Below, piece after piece: positions 21,244 to 35,316 of a stretch of 40,368 nucleotides of DNA. The DNA comes from a virus (taxonomy: Duplodnaviria; Heunggongvirae; Uroviricota; Caudoviricetes), in the IMG/VR virus record IMGVR_UViG_3300013285_000009, positions 76,984-117,351 of that record; one strand, 5' to 3'. Positions within the stretch are counted from its first letter, which is position 1; each line of letters begins with the position of its first letter. A model generated the notes under the pieces. That model saw nothing but the letters and a program-made list of their open reading frames with translations. It was not told where the DNA came from and searched no databases. The position numbers and the translations under genes were made by a program.

Positions 21244-21506
21244 TTCATCAAATTCCAAATAATAAATTCATGCTTATCAATGTGGTAGATATCTTCTATT
21301 GGCATCCCCGGACCATCAATGAGTCTCATTCCCGTGTAACATTTTGTGAGCCAGAGACGTTTTCTAGTTAGGAAACATGTTCTTGGCCATAAACAAAAAT
21401 GTAGTTTCCAATGTCGTACACGATTCAGCCCCCAATTCTGAGAACGGGGTTCTTGATCTACCATAGATTCGATTGCCATATTACGCTTTGACTGGAATCC
21501 AGTCAT
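21240..21506 (-). CDS. hypothetical protein
   Basis: TGATG coupling to the queE stop. Confidence 0.6.
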   Translation of the reverse strand: MTGFQSKRNMAIESMVDQEPRSQNWGLNRVRHWKLHFCLWPRTCFLTRKRLWLTKCYTGMRLIDGPGMPIEDIYHIDKHEFIIWNLMK

Positions 21507-22381
21507 CAAGTTCCCCACTCATTTTTGAACAGAGGTACCTGAAGTCTGTCGCTATAACGCATACCAGACTTGATAGCAAAGTCTGCTACTCTACGATTGT
21601 TCATAGCATACACGCTTTCGACTCCACCGACTGGCATCAGATAAGCCGGGCCTTTGAATCCTGCTGATCGGTAATCTGAGTATACTGAAATAGCTTCATT
21701 GGCATCATCTTCAGTTGCAATTACAAACTTCAAGTAAGTGTAACCAACATCTTCATACGACAGGATGATTTCGGGCTTGATTGCCTCAGTGTACTTCTCC
21801 CCACTACCGCTTAGCTTGGGACTAACGGAGAATGTTAGCTTGTCATAACCTCGGGCCATATGGGTATCGTAATATTTAGAATTCAATGTCCAGTTCAATA
21901 GATATTGCCTGAATTCAGGAGTTAATTCTTGTGTACCGTTTGTTTCGAATGTTAGTTCGGCAAGCCCGAGCATCTTAGGATGATTCAGCAAGTCTGGATA
22001 AGCACGTTGCCAACCTAGCAATGGTTCACCCCCTGTAATTACAAGATGTTCATCTTGCCAACATTTATACGGAAGCATTTCCATAATACGGTCAACAATC
22101 GCATTGCTAGTGAGCATTGGACTAAGATTTTTAAAACTAGGATGCCAGCTAGCATAGCTATCGCACCCAGTAGACACTAACGGCAAGTCTTCGTATTTTT
22201 CAAATAGATGGGCGACTCGTGAAATCTCGTCTGCTTCATTGCTTAATTCGCCGCGGGGCATTCCAAAGCCGGCGCATTTAAAGTTGCAACCAAATGTGCG
22301 TAAGAACACACTCGGGACACCCATATATCGACCCTCGCCCTGAATGCTATAAAATAATTCTGCTACTTTTAAATTTGACAT
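21506..22381 (-). CDS. queE: 7-carboxy-7-deazaguanine synthase (radical SAM)
   Basis: ELFYSIQGEG, FLRTFGCNFKC...CDS, ITGGEP, ETNGT, SVSPK. Confidence 0.92.
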   Translation of the reverse strand: MSNLKVAELFYSIQGEGRYMGVPSVFLRTFGCNFKCAGFGMPRGELSNEADEISRVAHLFEKYEDLPLVSTGCDSYASWHPSFKNLSPMLTSNAIVDRIMEMLPYKCWQDEHLVITGGEPLLGWQRAYPDLLNHPKMLGLAELTFETNGTQELTPEFRQYLLNWTLNSKYYDTHMARGYDKLTFSVSPKLSGSGEKYTEAIKPEIILSYEDVGYTYLKFVIATEDDANEAISVYSDYRSAGFKGPAYLMPVGGVESVYAMNNRRVADFAIKSGMRYSDRLQVPLFKNEWGT

Positions 22382-22405: not shown

Positions 22406-22434
22406 ATTATAACGCGCTTTGTACAGAAAGTCAA
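22406..22434 (-). promoter_or_regulatory. sigma70 promoter for queE (TTGACT-N17-TATAAT)
   Basis: 17-bp spacer; the -35 overlaps the upstream TGA. Confidence 0.75.
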
Positions 22435-22763
22435 GTCAAGGATGGCCAGTCTCTGTACAAAGCATGTTGAATGTTGCCCGAAACAAATTGATTGAAGCTT
22501 TTGTGCTTGTCTTCAAGCTCACCTTCTAACGGGGCAACTCTTTGGAATGCAGTTTCTAGTTGGGCCATGTCATTGAATTCAATCATGATGTGCCACTCTG
22601 GTAAATCTTGAATGCTTCGAAAACCCATCTTGCATCGTGTTATTCTGTACGACACTAATTTGTCTTCTGACTTCAAGTGATCCAAGAAGCCCTTCATGTT
22701 ATTAACCCAATCTATATCACTGATAGGGCCTTCTTTATCTGCCCATATATGGTATATATCCAT
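22431..22763 (-). CDS. hypothetical ferredoxin-like/dimeric alpha-beta barrel protein (DUF6614-like)
   Basis: MDIYHIWAD...YRITRCKMGF...EWHIMIEF; family recalled from memory. Confidence 0.6.
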   Translation of the reverse strand: MDIYHIWADKEGPISDIDWVNNMKGFLDHLKSEDKLVSYRITRCKMGFRSIQDLPEWHIMIEFNDMAQLETAFQRVAPLEGELEDKHKSFNQFVSGNIQHALYRDWPSLT

Positions 22764-23965
22764 TATTTTCTCTCCGGGAAATAATCTTGTTGTGTACCTT
22801 CTCTATGCACATCACTAGTGATACAGTGTAATCCACCGTCCCAAAAGTATCGGTGTCTAAAGTTTACAACATGCGGTGTGATACCGTGTCGTTCAAACGC
22901 CTCAAATACTTTCTCATTATAATTATTGCAAACTACATTCTGTTGGTCAATTACTAGCATGTTCACATCAAAAACGGTTTCTTCTACAAAACCAACCCAA
23001 TGATCTAACCAACCTTCGACAAACTCAGTGAATTCATCATTCAACTCTTCGCCGGGTACCCACCACTTTCCGTAATTCTTTATCTTTAAATCTCTGAATG
23101 GTTTGACTAATTCCCAGCTTTGATTAGGCAGGAATACAACTTCCCATCCGGGAAAGGTTTCTTCGTAATTAGATAAATCATGTAGTGAAACAATCAGTCC
23201 GGGTTTAACAGGACAGAAAACGCCGTCACTGTGACCGCCGGTTTGTAACACATGGCATCTATGATCAGTAAATCTTCCCTTAAAGTCACCCTCCATTATA
23301 GCGGTATGCTGTAATGCAGCATGTGTACCAAAATACAAATCCTTACCTATTCGAGTAGTTTCGGCAGCATTATAATGTGATAACCTATTACCTGCACCTG
23401 TTATTATAGGATTGCCGGCTTGTTGAATAGTTGCTAGTACATCACCCCAAGTCATTTTATCATAGTCAGCATCAGAAGCCAACTTGGTGTAAGCCGGACT
23501 ATTGACACCGTCGGGTATCATTATAGAAAATAGTTCATCGTATATTTCATCAGAAATAGATAACCATTCGTCTCGGTTTGTAGGGGCGGTGCCGGGCCAA
23601 TGATCTTTACGAATAGAAGACCAATTATCTTTTGCATTTCTCCGTAATTGCACATTTGTATTAAAATAGAAATCAGTACCTAGCATAATTGAATCATCAC
23701 GCGGTACCATTGGTGGGGAGCGAATCTTGCCGGTTGGATTCAAATACAATCGATAATCATCAAATACATTAGGACGTAGTACCGTTACACCAAAGCTGTT
23801 GAGTACTGCTATTAGTTGTTGATAATCTTCTTCTGTTTCACGAGCGATTCTCTCCATCACTACCCTAACTCTAGCATTAGTAATGAATGAGTAGAACTCG
23901 GGATTATAGGATCTACCCACAATACAAACTTTAAGTGGATCCCAATGTTGGTAAACTGAATACAT
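22763..23965 (-). CDS. amidinotransferase (glycine/inosamine-phosphate amidinotransferase family)
   Basis: HWDPLKVCIVGR, PRD, GGHSDG (His), DGGLHCIT (catalytic Cys): pentein fold motifs. Confidence 0.85.
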   Translation of the reverse strand: MYSVYQHWDPLKVCIVGRSYNPEFYSFITNARVRVVMERIARETEEDYQQLIAVLNSFGVTVLRPNVFDDYRLYLNPTGKIRSPPMVPRDDSIMLGTDFYFNTNVQLRRNAKDNWSSIRKDHWPGTAPTNRDEWLSISDEIYDELFSIMIPDGVNSPAYTKLASDADYDKMTWGDVLATIQQAGNPIITGAGNRLSHYNAAETTRIGKDLYFGTHAALQHTAIMEGDFKGRFTDHRCHVLQTGGHSDGVFCPVKPGLIVSLHDLSNYEETFPGWEVVFLPNQSWELVKPFRDLKIKNYGKWWVPGEELNDEFTEFVEGWLDHWVGFVEETVFDVNMLVIDQQNVVCNNYNEKVFEAFERHGITPHVVNFRHRYFWDGGLHCITSDVHREGTQQDYFPERK

Positions 23966-23997
23966 TTTATTCCTTAACTAAATATACGTATATTTAT

Positions 23998-24663
23998 ATG
24001 CAAATACATTTCTCAAACAATTTTGGAAAGTTTACACAATATGACTTTACCGTAACTTCCGTAACGGCTGAAGTCGGTGACGATGAACATTTGCTTGCAT
24101 TGCAGCAAGGCTTTCTTTGGAGTAATAATGCATGGAGACAATGCAGAAGCACCAGAGTATTACTAGCAGAAACAAATTATAATACATATGCTGATGCAAG
24201 TATATTGACTGAGTATGATTATGATGAACTAGTGCTTATCAATGAAAAATATATTGCCTCTAGAGGATACGCTTACCATCCCGCTGATTCACACATTTCA
24301 CCCATAGATACTATTTGGGGATACTATCACGATACTACACTGATTGCCTGGAGTAGAATTCATAACTACAACGGGGCAAAGGAAACTGCATACTTCGCAT
24401 GGGATAGTGCTGATATGAGCTTGCGAGTAGGAACAAAAAGCCTAGAGCATGAGATTGCATGGGCTAAGCAGTTGGGCGATGAATATCTTTATATGGGTGC
24501 CGGATACGAAACATGTTCAATATACAAAAGCCGTATGCAGGGTTTCGAATGGTGGACCGGTTCAGTATGGAGTAAAGATATAGATCAGTATGTAAAATTG
24601 TGTGAGCGTGAAACCAGCGTAAACAATTTTAAAGACTTTGAATCTATTATTTACGCCAAGTAA
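23998..24663 (+). CDS. ATE1/Bpt-like aminoacyl-tRNA-protein transferase
   Basis: AYFAWD...LRVGTKSLEHEIAWAKQLGDEYLYMG...CSIYK matches the ATE_C pattern; CTAAATA at 23978-23984; start ATG 23998. Confidence 0.7.
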   Translation: MQIHFSNNFGKFTQYDFTVTSVTAEVGDDEHLLALQQGFLWSNNAWRQCRSTRVLLAETNYNTYADASILTEYDYDELVLINEKYIASRGYAYHPADSHISPIDTIWGYYHDTTLIAWSRIHNYNGAKETAYFAWDSADMSLRVGTKSLEHEIAWAKQLGDEYLYMGAGYETCSIYKSRMQGFEWWTGSVWSKDIDQYVKLCERETSVNNFKDFESIIYAK

Positions 24664-25142: not shown

Positions 25143-25307
25143 TTAGTTATTCCAGTGTTTAATTACACCTGCTATAATAAAGCAGTTTGTTAACAGATAA
25201 GTTAACACAATGACGGTACGAATGCAGGCAATACGGTCAGCTTCTTTGTCCGTACTACCGGCTTTTTCACCTAGTGCTTTTGCCCAAAGATACCAAAATT
25301 TACGCAT
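25143..25307 (-). CDS. 54-aa membrane protein MRKFWYLWAKALGEKAG...IIAGVIKHWNN (not in track)
   Basis: Hand-translated; resembles a common small T4-like phage protein. Confidence 0.75.
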   Translation of the reverse strand: MRKFWYLWAKALGEKAGSTDKEADRIACIRTVIVLTYLLTNCFIIAGVIKHWNN

Positions 25308-25386
25308 TGATCCTAATTCCAACGTACCACAAGTCGGCTCTTACAAACCACTTGCCATCGTTCTTACCAAATCCAAAGCGTAACAT
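25300..25386 (-). CDS. 28-aa small ORF MLRFGFGKNDGKWFVRADLWYVGIRINA (not in track)
   Basis: Hand-translated; overlaps the next start. Confidence 0.45.
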   Translation of the reverse strand: MLRFGFGKNDGKWFVRADLWYVGIRINA

Positions 25387-25411: not shown

Positions 25412-25600
25412 TTAGTTACTGCCATTCTTCACCCATAGCTCCAAAGCCTTTGCAGGATAAATCTGTACTGAACCTCGTTCAGTAGCACTTTCAACTGCAT
25501 AACCCTCCGGAGTTAATTCAGTTGAATACGTACCAACAATTGTTCCGTGCCATTGTGACCCGGAAACCTTTTTTACTAAATCACCTAATTTAAATTTCAT
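25412..25600 (-). CDS. dfrB: type II (R67/DfrB-like) dihydrofolate reductase homologue
   Basis: [36 protein letters not shown]...GSVQIYP: [10 protein letters not shown] and the VQIY active-site motif are intact. Confidence 0.88.
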
Positions 25601-26106
25601 ACAAACAAATCCTCATTCCATTCACGGTGACCTTCGCGGAAAGCCATATTGGCCTGTGTCTCGCGCACCTCTACTTTATAGCACCAGAGACGTGCAGCTT
25701 CGCCTTCACCCCACATTTCAGGAATGTAAACACCGTTGACATACTTATAAAGCATATCGCTAAGGCCTTCGCAACCTAACTTTGGTAAGACAACAATCTT
25801 AGCCATGTTCTTTTCTTGTAGCATTTTGAATGTAGCCATTTCTGGATCATCTTGTGCTACGATAAGCGTATGGTCGAATTGGCTCTCTAAAGTCTTTTTC
25901 AACTCTTTCAGCCCACCGTAGTCAGCAGCCCAATTACGAACATCCAATTCATTTGTTCCAAAGTAGAACTTCATGCTAAACGAGTAGCCGTGAATTAAAT
26001 TGCAGTGCGAATCCGACCGCCATTGACGATAAGCACAAGGGAATGCATCAATGTACTCTTTTGTACTTGTATATTTGTATGCGACTGGGGTTAGTGTTGT
26101 TGCCAT
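25597..26106 (-). CDS. queD: 6-carboxy-5,6,7,8-tetrahydropterin synthase
   Basis: HCNLIHGY (CxxxHG), FDHT, GCEGLS, VEVRET. Confidence 0.88.
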
Positions 26107-26123: not shown

Positions 26124-26152
26124 ATTATAGCACAGGCGGCAGAATTTGTCAA
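26124..26152 (-). promoter_or_regulatory. sigma70 promoter for queD-dfrB (TTGACA-N17-TATAAT)
   Basis: Perfect hexamers, AGGAG RBS. Confidence 0.85.
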
Positions 26153-27902: not shown

Positions 27903-28130
27903 TCACACTAGTTCCTCGACAATACCTAAAATTTCTGCTACGATAAAGAACCAACCCGCTTCGGGTAGGCCCATCATAATCAATGATGCACCTGCAGCAA
28001 TACGTAGTACGCTTTTAACAAGGCTGACATAAAAATGTCCCTTGCGTGTGTCTTTGGGTTGAATATTAAGCTTAGGTGTATCTGCGCAATTACAGTCTCT
28101 ACCTTGATTGCAATTTTGATTACAACTCAT
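27903..28130 (-). CDS. small membrane protein with N-terminal CNQNCNQGRDCNC motif
   Basis: TAATG coupling with folE; C-terminal hydrophobic helices. Confidence 0.7.
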   Translation of the reverse strand: MSCNQNCNQGRDCNCADTPKLNIQPKDTRKGHFYVSLVKSVLRIAAGASLIMMGLPEAGWFFIVAEILGIVEELV

Positions 28131-28804
28131 TATCGTCCTCTTGCCAATTGATAAAACTCTGCACGGGCGGCTGGATCACTTTTGAATCCGCCACCTAGTT
28201 TACTAGTGACAGTTGAACTACCTGTATCTTCTACACCCCGGGCGGCAACGCAGTAATGTTTGGCATCGATCATTACAGCAATATCGTCTGTGTCCAAAAT
28301 GTATTGAAGTGCATAGAATACTTGCTCAGTCAAACGCTCTTGAATTTGAGGACGCTTGCTGAAGTATTCAACAATACGATTGATCTTGCTCAATCCTAGA
28401 ACTTTATCTTTTGGTACATAAGCAACAGTAGCTAGACCGGAAATAATTACAAAGTGATGTTCACAATTTGATTGTACATTGACATTACGTTCGCATACCA
28501 TTTCGTTGTATTTCATCTTGTTATCGACCGTAGTACACTTGGGGAATGCATCGTAGTCAAGGCCGTAAAAGACCTCATTTACGTACATTTTTGCAACACG
28601 CTTTGGAGTATCCATCAAACTATCATCGCTTAGGTCAAGACCTAGTGTTTCCATGATAGCTTTGAAGTGACCTTCAATGATGTGAATCTTATCGGTGCGG
28701 ATAAGTTTGTTTGGCGTGGATGGAGTTTCTACTCCCATCATAACTAGATGATTGTGAACTCGTTGACCCAATTCTGGATCGCATTTGGTTTTGTTGTATG
28801 ACAT
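28130..28804 (-). CDS. folE: GTP cyclohydrolase I
   Basis: DTPKRVAKMY, SNCEHH, GLSKINR, RPQIQERLT, HYCVAARG. Confidence 0.96.
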   Translation of the reverse strand: MSYNKTKCDPELGQRVHNHLVMMGVETPSTPNKLIRTDKIHIIEGHFKAIMETLGLDLSDDSLMDTPKRVAKMYVNEVFYGLDYDAFPKCTTVDNKMKYNEMVCERNVNVQSNCEHHFVIISGLATVAYVPKDKVLGLSKINRIVEYFSKRPQIQERLTEQVFYALQYILDTDDIAVMIDAKHYCVAARGVEDTGSSTVTSKLGGGFKSDPAARAEFYQLARGR

Positions 28805-33103: not shown

Positions 33104-33556
33104 TTAGATTACGAGGTTGTTGAACGAAATTGTTCTATTATAAAAAATTGTGCATCCATTCTCTCCGTCTTCCGAGACTTCGATATGAACATCACGCTCT
33201 GGGTAACGACTAGCGATTTGTTTATATAGATCATCGCTAATCATTTCGCAGCTTTTGAAATTCAATTCTAACACACCTTGATATAGATTGTCAAGCCATC
33301 GTTTGAATTGAATAAACTCAATATCCCGATCATTATGAAATACTTCAATTGATACGCGGAAATGAAACATGTGCCGATGTGGGCTAGCCAAAAAGCTAAC
33401 ATCATATTCATCACCTGTCTTTAGTGCAGGATCAGTTGCAGCAGCAGGATAGCAATGTACACCCTCACGTTGAAAGGTTACGAAAATCATTCTCTTTGCT
33501 GCATCGCTAATGCGTGTGGTTTTCTCTTGTAGTGCCATACTATGTTGCTCAGTCAT
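33104..33556 (-). CDS. dpdL: QueD-paralogous T-fold protein, DpdL-like (putative CDG decarboxylase)
   Basis: LASPHRHMF (LxxxHRHxF) instead of CxxxHGH; SCEMISDDL and VSEDGENG T-fold motifs. Confidence 0.65.
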   Translation of the reverse strand: MTEQHSMALQEKTTRISDAAKRMIFVTFQREGVHCYPAAATDPALKTGDEYDVSFLASPHRHMFHFRVSIEVFHNDRDIEFIQFKRWLDNLYQGVLELNFKSCEMISDDLYKQIASRYPERDVHIEVSEDGENGCTIFYNRTISFNNLVI

Positions 33557-33746
33557 TTTGTTCTTCCTCTTCTTCCTCGAGGGCACGAACTCTTGTTAAT
33601 TCATCTTGCAATTTTGTACGCTGAGTACTTAGGTTGGCTAACCCCGACTGATCCGCTTCAGGGCGCCGCTGCAAGTCAGCAATTTGCACGTCAATCAATC
33701 GACGTGCTTCAGTGAGGTGCTTGATTTTTATTGAGTATGATGACAT
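33549..33746 (-). CDS. small coiled-coil protein
   Basis: Heptad pattern; ATGA overlap. Confidence 0.7.
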   Translation of the reverse strand: MSSYSIKIKHLTEARRLIDVQIADLQRRPEADQSGLANLSTQRTKLQDELTRVRALEEEEEEQND

Positions 33747-33762: not shown

Positions 33763-35316
33763 TTATTCGCCCAACGCTTCGATCATAGCATCATCGCTGT
33801 CTAGTTCTTCTTCGTCAATAACTGTTACGGGGGCATCTTCGGTAAATAATTCATCAAACATAGTTAGAGAATTTACTGTCTTCTTACCGCTGTAACCTTG
33901 ACTACCGCTTTGAAACTGCATCCAATATCGGGTATATGATTCAATCATGTCTAAGCTTTTCTGACGATCCTTCAAAGCAAAAATCTGATCAACTACTTCA
34001 CTGAATACAATTTTCTCAAATGTATCATTAGTCAGCATCTTAGGAACGACACCCTGATCATAACGACGATTTGCTTCCTGTACTGCTGTCATGTGTGACC
34101 ATACATTATGACCTTGCAATAAAGTATAGCTCAGCGTATCCCAACTTGTCTTTGTTTCTTTACCATGCTGACCGATGAATCCCTGACCTCTATAACACAG
34201 ATCACTTAGTGTCATTTTATCAGTAATTGGTGAGTCAGTAAAGACTTTATGGATACCTTCAGCTAAAACAGCATCCCGATACTTGCGTGTGTCAGTTGAA
34301 TAGGACTTTTTCTCAGCCGTCTTTTCCATACTGTATGCCCACTTTTTATTGTTTTCAATAGTCGTATTGAAGTATGCAAGGCCCTTTGCGGCACTAAAGA
34401 ATGGGCTTGCGCAGTCAAACGTAATCTGTAGACTAGGGTTGTGATGCTTTCGGATAGAACGTTGGACATCACTAAACATCACAGCATATTCTAAGATGCT
34501 CGTACCCAGACAGTGAATTAAATCATGCTTACCTTCTTCTAACAACCCGTCATGGATAATGTTAACCAACCGTTTAAGGAATAAGTGAACGTCGATTTTG
34601 TTCTGACCTCCCATGGCCCAACCATTAAAGTGAGTCTCTGGGTAGATATTCGGGTCGCAATACTTCTTCATCTCATCATACCATGCATCACTCTGTGTAT
34701 GATTCAATCCCTGCAATACGTTTAAGAACTTGCACTTGCCCGAACGATTAGCAATGAAATACTCATTGTTGATGTGTGTGGCTGAAATAGCATCCTCAAT
34801 GGTCTTGATACCATGTAGAGATTTACCGTTCTTATCTTGCATACCGTAAGTGCGCAAGGACTGTGAGGGGATATCTAAACACATACCGTAATCCATGTAT
34901 GTGTCCATCCAGTTCAATACAGCTTTACGCTTGATCATGGCCTTGGGACAAGCAGGGTCTTTCCAGTCTGCGGGCCATTGACCTTTAAGAATCTGGAAAC
35001 CACCGGAGTCCCCTAACATAAACGTACCCGCTTCACGATTTCGGATGATGTTCTCCTTAGGATCAACGACAGTAGTATCTAAGTTGGCGTGACCTGCTGA
35101 GTACAAACCCCACTTGTAATAGAACAATCCCTTTTGGCTATTGAGAAAGTTCAATGTTTCTACGTCTTGAATCTGTGCAGGCAGTCTTGCTTGCTCAAAG
35201 TAATTTTGTCCGGCTTGTTGCTTACCTAATCCGGCGATATAGAATGAGCTAACTGCAGGTAAGAACAGGGCCCAGTCTGGATTGTGTTTAGCGGTAAGAT
35301 TATCTTGTTCTATCAT
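33763..35316 (-). CDS. dpdA: TGT-fold guanine transglycosylase, DpdA-like
   Basis: GDSGGFQ, LDIP, VLQG, GWAMGG, HCLG, FDCASP; no CxCxxC zinc motif of tRNA Tgt seen; deazaguanine gene context. Confidence 0.75.
   Translation of the reverse strand: MIEQDNLTAKHNPDWALFLPAVSSFYIAGLGKQQAGQNYFEQARLPAQIQDVETLNFLNSQKGLFYYKWGLYSAGHANLDTTVVDPKENIIRNREAGTFMLGDSGGFQILKGQWPADWKDPACPKAMIKRKAVLNWMDTYMDYGMCLDIPSQSLRTYGMQDKNGKSLHGIKTIEDAISATHINNEYFIANRSGKCKFLNVLQGLNHTQSDAWYDEMKKYCDPNIYPETHFNGWAMGGQNKIDVHLFLKRLVNIIHDGLLEEGKHDLIHCLGTSILEYAVMFSDVQRSIRKHHNPSLQITFDCASPFFSAAKGLAYFNTTIENNKKWAYSMEKTAEKKSYSTDTRKYRDAVLAEGIHKVFTDSPITDKMTLSDLCYRGQGFIGQHGKETKTSWDTLSYTLLQGHNVWSHMTAVQEANRRYDQGVVPKMLTNDTFEKIVFSEVVDQIFALKDRQKSLDMIESYTRYWMQFQSGSQGYSGKKTVNSLTMFDELFTEDAPVTVIDEEELDSDDAMIEALGE

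Follow-up and report, generated by a model that had tools for sequence, protein, structure and literature searches.

A minimal R67/DfrB-type dihydrofolate reductase homologue in a giant-phage lineage, placed in a variable slot behind queD

Introduction

The locus described here raises the question of what a phage does with a small gene that resembles R67 dihydrofolate reductase (DHFR; DfrB1) and overlaps the end of a queD-like gene. R67 DHFR is plasmid- and integron-borne, whereas the gene studied here lies in a phage operon and not in an integron cassette. The DNA that was analysed, referred to throughout as the window, is a stretch of 40,368 nucleotides at the end of a 117-kb IMG/VR contig. 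This contig amounts to about 34 % of a genome according to a completeness estimate.

DfrB genes have been seen in phage DNA before. DfrB2-like genes with 67 % identity were reported from freshwater virome contigs in 2020 (PMC7265639), phage DfrB homologues were tested in 2023 (PMC9835603), and 20 viral homologues were analysed in 2025 (PMC12486381). In the last of these studies viral DfrB was proposed to serve dTMP synthesis together with ThyA where FolA is absent, and in 2026 the same role, again with ThyA, was proposed for the R67-family DHFR of the lytic vibriophage R39Z (PMC13749740). Papers from 2020 to 2026 have covered both phage DfrB genes and the part that these probably play in thymidylate and folate metabolism, and in this respect little changes for the field. 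The placement of dfrB inside a folE-queD-queE island is unreported in the literature searched, and the papers on phage DfrB homologues (PMC9835603, PMC12486381, PMC13749740) do not mention this giant-phage context.

Results

The ORF belongs to the R67/DfrB family

The gene in question is the following.

25412..25600, minus strand: dfrB-like gene of 62 aa, reduced to the SH3-like core of an R67/DfrB-type dihydrofolate reductase and lacking the N-terminal tail seen in R67

This 62-codon ORF is taken from the ORF listing of the window, and a longer form is excluded because an in-frame TGA lies five codons upstream. The ORF scored 76 bits (E 2e-21) against Pfam PF06442 DHFR_2, for which the cut-off is 25, and 74.8 bits for the same family in a genome-wide Pfam scan. 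In PHROGs it matches phrog_31682, to which no function is assigned there. A phmmer search against PDB sequences returned R67 DHFR chains only (1vie, 2rk1; E 1e-16), and residues 3-54 of the ORF align without gaps to residues 24-75 of R67 (n becomes n+21). A hand count on the phmmer alignment gave 34 identical positions out of 52, which is far beyond chance. A sequence-only reading had described a 62-aa ORF overlapping the queD stop with about this level of identity, and exactly the same figures were found here.

The AlphaFold2 model of the product (a single chain, built from a 44-homologue alignment) has a pLDDT of 89.8 and five strands, and this predicted fold is the SH3-like five-stranded beta-barrel of about 58 residues that characterizes DfrB proteins. 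The seven best PDB matches of the model were all R67 DHFR (TM 0.86-0.95, rmsd 0.9-1.0 Å), followed by generic SH3/KOW barrels with E > 0.01. Sequence, profile and fold agree that the ORF is a genuine R67/DfrB-type relative, as had been read from the letters alone, and the family assignment is secure. However, the NCBIfam model for the named resistance alleles DfrB1-DfrB10+ (NF000331, trim_DfrB) gave 85.5 bits, below its cut-off of 137, so the ORF is a member of the family and not a clinical allele.

The likeness to R67 DHFR (PDB 1vie, 2rk1, 2gqv) covers Pfam family, barrel architecture, backbone (rmsd about 1 Å) and core sequence, while the differences are the loss of the 20-residue N-terminal tail and the changes H62->E, W45->T, Q39->H and K33->V. 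Kept in the ORF are K32, W38, Y46, T51, E58, S59, S65 and V66-Q67-I68-Y69. In ORF numbering the pore motif is V45-Q46-I47-Y48, with K11 for K32 and S44 for S65. The residues that had been named earlier as kept (K32, W38 and the VQIY motif) and as changed (W45 and H62) were all correct in the R67 alignment.

Glutamate at position 62 is a hallmark of the subfamily

A subfamily alignment of 121 sequences was assembled, which includes the 120 closest representatives of 90 % clusters (of 422 matches in all). In this alignment R67 position 62 is E in 119 sequences and position 45 is T in 113. The residues K32, W38, G40, Y46, T48, T51, G54, Y55, E58, S65, V66 and Q67 are invariant, and S59, I68 and Y69 each differ in one sequence. 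Among 38 copies from the lineage the median dN/dS of dfrB was 0.028 at dS of about 1, which shows that this is a real gene under strong purifying selection.

It had been suggested that the change of H62 to E could affect tetramer assembly. E62 is a subfamily hallmark and not a lesion: nearly all subfamily sequences carry it, and DfrB-H4 of Vibrio phage 1.030.O, a homologue that has E62 and has lost W45 as in the ORF described here, made E. coli resistant to trimethoprim at up to 600 ug/ml, as did its excised SH3 segment (PMC9835603). The candidate explanation of H62E as a disabling change was rejected on these grounds. W45 is likewise not conserved among DfrB homologues (PMC9835603). DfrB-H4 and DfrB-H3 (Pseudomonas phage PS-1) are phage-encoded DfrB domains with VQIY, K32 and W38, but they are multidomain proteins (218 and 167 aa, respectively) whereas the gene in the window encodes the bare 62-aa core. 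At the dimer-dimer interface the ORF keeps W38 and S59 and has E for H62, and the interface is probably intact in spite of E62. H62 is the pH-sensing histidine of R67 DHFR, and E62 probably removes the pH switch that this residue gives the enzyme.

Operon layout around dfrB

The features that bear on the expression and context of dfrB are these.

26124..26152, minus strand: predicted sigma-70 consensus promoter (TTGACA, 17 nt, TG-n-TATAAT; 12/12 with extended -10 in a consensus scan)
25597..26106, minus strand: divergent QueD/PTPS-like gene of 169 aa, directly upstream of dfrB (Pfam PTPS 54.7 bits)
25610..25614, minus strand: GAGGA, a Shine-Dalgarno-like motif 9 nt upstream of the dfrB ATG, within the queD coding sequence
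25143..25322, minus strand: orf59 (phrog_1679, PHROG 95 bits), a small conserved gene that lies directly 3' of queD in relatives without dfrB
28130..28804, minus strand: bona fide FolE, GTP cyclohydrolase I (NCBIfam FolE 321.7 bits, cut-off 202; Pfam 208 bits)
21506..22381, minus strand: divergent QueE-like radical SAM gene, with N-terminal matches only to NCBIfam QueE models, far under their cut-offs

The stop codon of queD overlaps the ATG of dfrB in the sequence ATGA. The predicted promoter lies just upstream of queD and is followed by AGGAG and the queD ATG, and no terminator-like site was found between queD and dfrB on the minus strand. This arrangement suggests that queD and dfrB are probably co-transcribed from the predicted sigma-70-type promoter, which is likely the start of an early queD-dfrB transcript. 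The ATGA overlap itself is generic compaction, since four-base stop/start overlaps are common throughout the window. Similarly, the GAGGA motif is not specific to dfrB because the same bases encode the conserved C-terminus of QueD in relatives that lack dfrB.

The QueD-like protein scored 34 bits against NCBIfam QueD, below the cut-off of 89, and it has Tyr for two of the three canonical zinc-ligand His residues (A-Y-R for A-H-R and C-x3-H-G-Y for C-x3-H-G-H). Both Tyr changes are kept in all 113 QueD copies of the lineage, with or without dfrB, including those that are only 55 % identical. Because the variant is present regardless of dfrB, it creates no reductase requirement, and the candidate explanation that dfrB meets a reductase need of this Tyr-variant QueD was rejected, the same variant being found in all relatives without dfrB.

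Further genes around dfrB encode a cytidylyltransferase, GalE and glycosyltransferase-like proteins. Between dfrB and the QueE-like gene there are three others: a 400-aa protein (22763-23965, minus strand) that ends in a GGLHC motif and has an amidinotransferase-like look with no Pfam match, an ATE_C/arginyltransferase-like gene on the opposite strand (23935-24663, plus) and a DUF6614 protein (22431-22763, minus). A second sigma-70-type site (11/12, at 22434-22406) precedes the QueE-like gene, and both this and the site in front of queD are likely early promoters.

The carrier phage and its deazaguanine genes

The contig encodes PolB, a ligase, UvdE and a helicase. Its PolB is 60-78 % identical to the PolB of complete relatives of 349-383 kb, which places the carrier in a giant-phage lineage. 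A megablast search with the region found no close DNA relatives among GenBank phages. The GC content of dfrB is 0.397 compared to 0.409 for the phage, no integrase, attC site or transposase was seen near the gene, and the carrier has the look of a giant phage of lytic type.

QueC is absent from the complete relatives G001 (367-kb) and G002 (383-kb) and no TGT was detected by Pfam in the contig itself, so the encoded pathway seems to end with CDG if no host enzymes take part. In this respect the phage resembles the phiST-type 7-deazaguanine systems (FolE, QueD, QueE, DpdL and DpdA, no QueC; PMC10516641), as it has FolE, QueD-like and QueE-like proteins without QueC. It differs from them in that the systems described so far comprise neither a DHFR nor a folate enzyme (PMC10516641), and in that neither Pfam nor PHROGs supports a DpdA at 33763-35316 or a DpdL at 33104-33586 of the window. 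A folate-dependent, DpdN-like formyltransferase would tie a DHFR to deazaguanine chemistry, but none was found in the 117-kb contig.

dfrB is an optional gene in a variable slot

In IMG/VR, DfrB has at least 189 relatives and QueD at least 588. None of the 80 closest QueD loci (85-96 % identical; the best 80 of at least 588) has dfrB within 4 kb of queD. Conversely, 37 of the 80 closest DfrB loci (the best 80 of at least 189) lie within a folE-cytidylyltransferase-queD-queE island, while the other 43, on contigs with a GC content of 37-66 %, have no pathway gene within 4 kb and mixed neighbours such as SSB, HNH and fusion proteins. By both counts, dfrB and the FolE-QueD-QueE pathway genes do not show conserved co-occurrence. 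Unrelated phage contigs that carry DfrB without queD nearby range from 35 to 66 % in GC content.

Within the island dfrB takes one of three slots: directly after queD, between orf59 and queE (it abuts queE in L006-L009, L018 and L034), or directly after folE (14 nt behind it in L029-L042). In an alignment of the junctions queD runs straight into orf59 in two loci without dfrB (L091, L097), and dfrB is inserted exactly between queD and orf59 in the window, L017 and L022. In yet another locus the same slot is filled by a different ORF of about 40 aa (MK.YKHS.GK..., ...PKGW.VML...; L092:4496-4620). The interval between folE and queE varies in length from 1.5 to 5.9 kb and holds more than 50 recurrent ORF families besides its two constant genes. 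As a minor observation, the family of the 40-aa ORF is also present at L008:1751-1888 and recurs in 6 of 26 loci.

In cultured DfrB phages (of Rhizobium and Ochrobactrum, Pseudomonas PS-1, Vibrio) dfrB is found among early, replication or integrase-proximal genes, queD was never beside it in those examined, and no PTPS was found in complete DfrB phages. About a dozen large-phage contigs have dfrB outside the island, and three more have a PTPS gene 6-10 kb from dfrB.

An obligatory QueD-DfrB pair was considered and rejected, given the lack of dfrB at the nearest queD loci and the clean insertion slot at the junction. The coupling to queD that had been proposed from the sequence thus holds physically at this locus, where the overlap, the predicted upstream promoter and the lack of a terminator-like site agree, but is weak beyond it. 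A native pterin role had also been proposed from the operon position, and this is unsupported by a slot that is empty or otherwise occupied in relatives. Instead, dfrB is small and optional, occupies a variable slot behind queD and is not a fixed partner of the pterin enzymes. A hot spot for accessory genes is the best explanation of its placement in the folE-queD-queE island. The recurrence of dfrB at three slots of the island is mildly suggestive of some link to it.

ThyA, FolA and DfrB across genomes

The distribution of DfrB, ThyA and FolA among relatives and other DfrB phages was as follows.

G001 (complete), G005 and G064: DfrB present, ThyA present, FolA absent
G002 (complete): DfrB absent, ThyA absent, FolA absent
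Eight of 15 ThyA-positive large relatives: DfrB absent, ThyA present, FolA present and adjoining thyA
The other seven of 15 ThyA-positive large relatives, including complete G007 and G008: DfrB absent, ThyA present, FolA absent
Complete small phages G046, G059 and G062: DfrB present, ThyA absent, FolA absent

FolA was found in none of the 50 DfrB contigs that were searched. In loci L250-L257 (genomes G009, G012-G016, G018 and G020) thyA is immediately preceded by the gene for a FolA-type DHFR of about 150 aa, as in the frd-td arrangement of T4. In G001 an unrelated 98-aa ORF is at this position. T4 Frd and DfrB would have the same presumed job, which is to recycle the dihydrofolate that ThyA produces while phage DNA is synthesized. 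However, Frd is of FolA type, with a fold and ancestry unrelated to DfrB, and it is encoded next to Td whereas dfrB of G001 lies about 112 kb from thyA.

No ThyA, ThyX or FolA was found in the 117-kb contig that contains the window. As this contig ends 1.2 kb past PolB and thyA in the collinear G001 is about 100 kb further on, the absence of ThyA is uninformative. Synteny of the contig with G064 is weak, unlike its collinearity with G001.

FolA is present in none of the three genomes with DfrB and ThyA compared to 8 of the 15 ThyA-positive relatives without DfrB, a difference that is not significant (p ~0.15). The pattern, with its three DfrB- and ThyA-positive genomes only, fits alternative DHFR solutions for one step, in line with the proposal made for viral DfrB (PMC12486381). 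The link between ThyA and DfrB is a loose one, because G046, G059 and G062 have DfrB without ThyA and G007 and G008 have ThyA without a phage DHFR. With ThyA accompanied by a FolA-type DHFR, a DfrB-type DHFR or neither, this one phage group offers a small natural example of interchangeable unrelated enzymes.

One of these relatives, G008, is a 524-kb IMG/VR contig that carries PolB twice, once near either end (at 18.7 kb and at 508 kb) and with the two copies in opposite orientation. This points to an assembly artefact or an inverted duplication and not to a true genome of 524 kb.

Discussion

The data presented in this study make it probable that dfrB encodes a functional subunit of a tetrameric DfrB dihydrofolate reductase and serves, as an optional auxiliary metabolic gene, to regenerate tetrahydrofolate in infection. 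Tetramer formation, DHFR activity, trimethoprim insensitivity and physiological role are properties that we infer for the product from its relatives. The VQIY motif is exclusive to 'cluster I' of the family (Lemay-St-Denis et al., PMC12486381), and the cluster I homologues tested, with 38-55 % identity to DfrB1, formed tetramers, were active and gave trimethoprim resistance (PMC12486381). By analogy with R67, four of the 62-residue SH3-like barrels would assemble into a homotetramer with a central pore lined by K32, S65, V66, Q67, I68 and Y69, in which dihydrofolate and NADPH would lie side by side for hydride transfer. The gene would be expressed early, together with queD from the host-type promoter, and its product would supply tetrahydrofolate for the synthesis of thymidylate and other nucleotides that depend on one-carbon units. 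This may be the same job that the FolA-type Frd next to thyA does in sister phages, and the place behind queD would reflect a hot spot for small accessory genes, with no dedicated pterin partnership. Against this reading stand the loose link to ThyA and the recurrence of dfrB in the folE-queE island, and the product lacks the N-terminal tail that is reported to be important for expression of DfrB1 (PMC9835603).

The position of dfrB invites another view, in which the tetramer would help the pterin pathway, either by reducing a dihydropterin of the 7-deazaguanine route (for example oxidised 6-carboxy-dihydropterin back to CPH4 for QueE) or by balancing the flux that derives from FolE. The translational abutment to queD and the likely shared promoter are consistent with this, as are the three slots used by 37 of the 80 nearest DfrB loci, the three large-phage contigs with PTPS at 6-10 kb and the unusual Tyr variant of QueD. 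Even so, such a role is improbable. None of the 80 nearest queD loci carries dfrB although all have the same H-G-Y variant, so the pathway does not need the gene. The slot between queD and orf59 is empty or otherwise filled in near relatives, the folE-queE interval is rich in other recurrent accessory families, and dfrB occurs outside the island in a dozen or so large-phage contigs and in complete phages that lack PTPS. To our knowledge, QueD chemistry requires no external reductant. Its product, 6-carboxy-tetrahydropterin, is the substrate of QueE, and in a more specific version the DfrB tetramer would have been recruited in this lineage as an NADPH-dependent dihydropterin reductase that keeps this compound reduced, or that tunes pterin flux from FolE. 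If true, this would explain why dfrB abuts folE, queD or queE in different relatives, but we regard it as improbable. Nothing usable on R67 acting on other pterins was found in the literature searched, and neither the DfrB papers nor the description of phage 7-deazaguanine systems (PMC10516641) links the two.

It is also conceivable, though unlikely, that the protein is a non-catalytic SH3-like module for binding or oligomerisation, for example in nucleotide or protein binding during replication, with dihydrofolate reduction as a promiscuous side activity. One study proposed that the domain has binding functions and found it associated with genes of replication and repair (PMC12486381), many of the phage homologues form fusions with other domains or lie in replication modules, and most small complete DfrB phages have no ThyA. 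However, the copy studied here is the bare catalytic core with the motif that is exclusive to the catalytic, tetramer-forming cluster (PMC12486381), and its pore residues, K32 and Q67 among them, do not vary and are under strong purifying selection, which is more constraint than a plain interaction module would need. Least of all does dfrB appear to be an antibiotic-resistance gene in transit, whether kept through trimethoprim selection or passed on with the phage as a direct vehicle to bacteria; this is most improbable. The product is probably trimethoprim-insensitive, as the family is, and a relative of the E62 type has reached resistance integrons, as described below. On the other hand, identity to clinical DfrB1, B3, B4 and B10 is 65-67 % and the trim_DfrB score falls short of its cut-off, the GC content matches that of the phage, and a dS of about 1 among the copies of the lineage points to a long residence of dfrB in the phage. 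The surroundings of a lytic-type giant phage with no integrase, attC or transposase nearby argue against transit as well. A functional DfrB subunit that regenerates tetrahydrofolate is thus the reading that is retained here.

The possibility that such phages are a reservoir of dfrB had also been raised from the sequence. The E62 subfamily did reach clinical mobile elements. WP_257792703.1, a 'DfrB family' gene of the E62 type whose product is 73-74 % identical to the phage protein over its full length, shares E62 and H39 with the phage subfamily but keeps W45 and sits in a resistance integron. Genes of this type were found in class 1 integron arrays of P. aeruginosa p1160-VIM (L261:4977-5180) and P. 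putida pTmex-577K (L262:5001-5180), two Pseudomonas plasmids. At 73-74 % identity, however, they are too diverged for recent transfer from this phage lineage, and the idea of phages as a dfrB reservoir is already in the literature.

What this study adds is that uncultured giant phages of an abundant group have a DfrB subfamily with E62 and T45 that is highly conserved and related to at least 189 IMG/VR loci. A survey of freshwater dfrB attributed 'environmental dfrB' to freshwater bacteria and never mentioned phages (PMC10432401), and with so many phage loci part of that signal may be phage DNA. It should also be noted that the integron gene of the E62 type is unannotated in pTmex-577K, and that it lies between aadA1 and the next array element, apparently on the strand opposite to the neighbouring cassettes.
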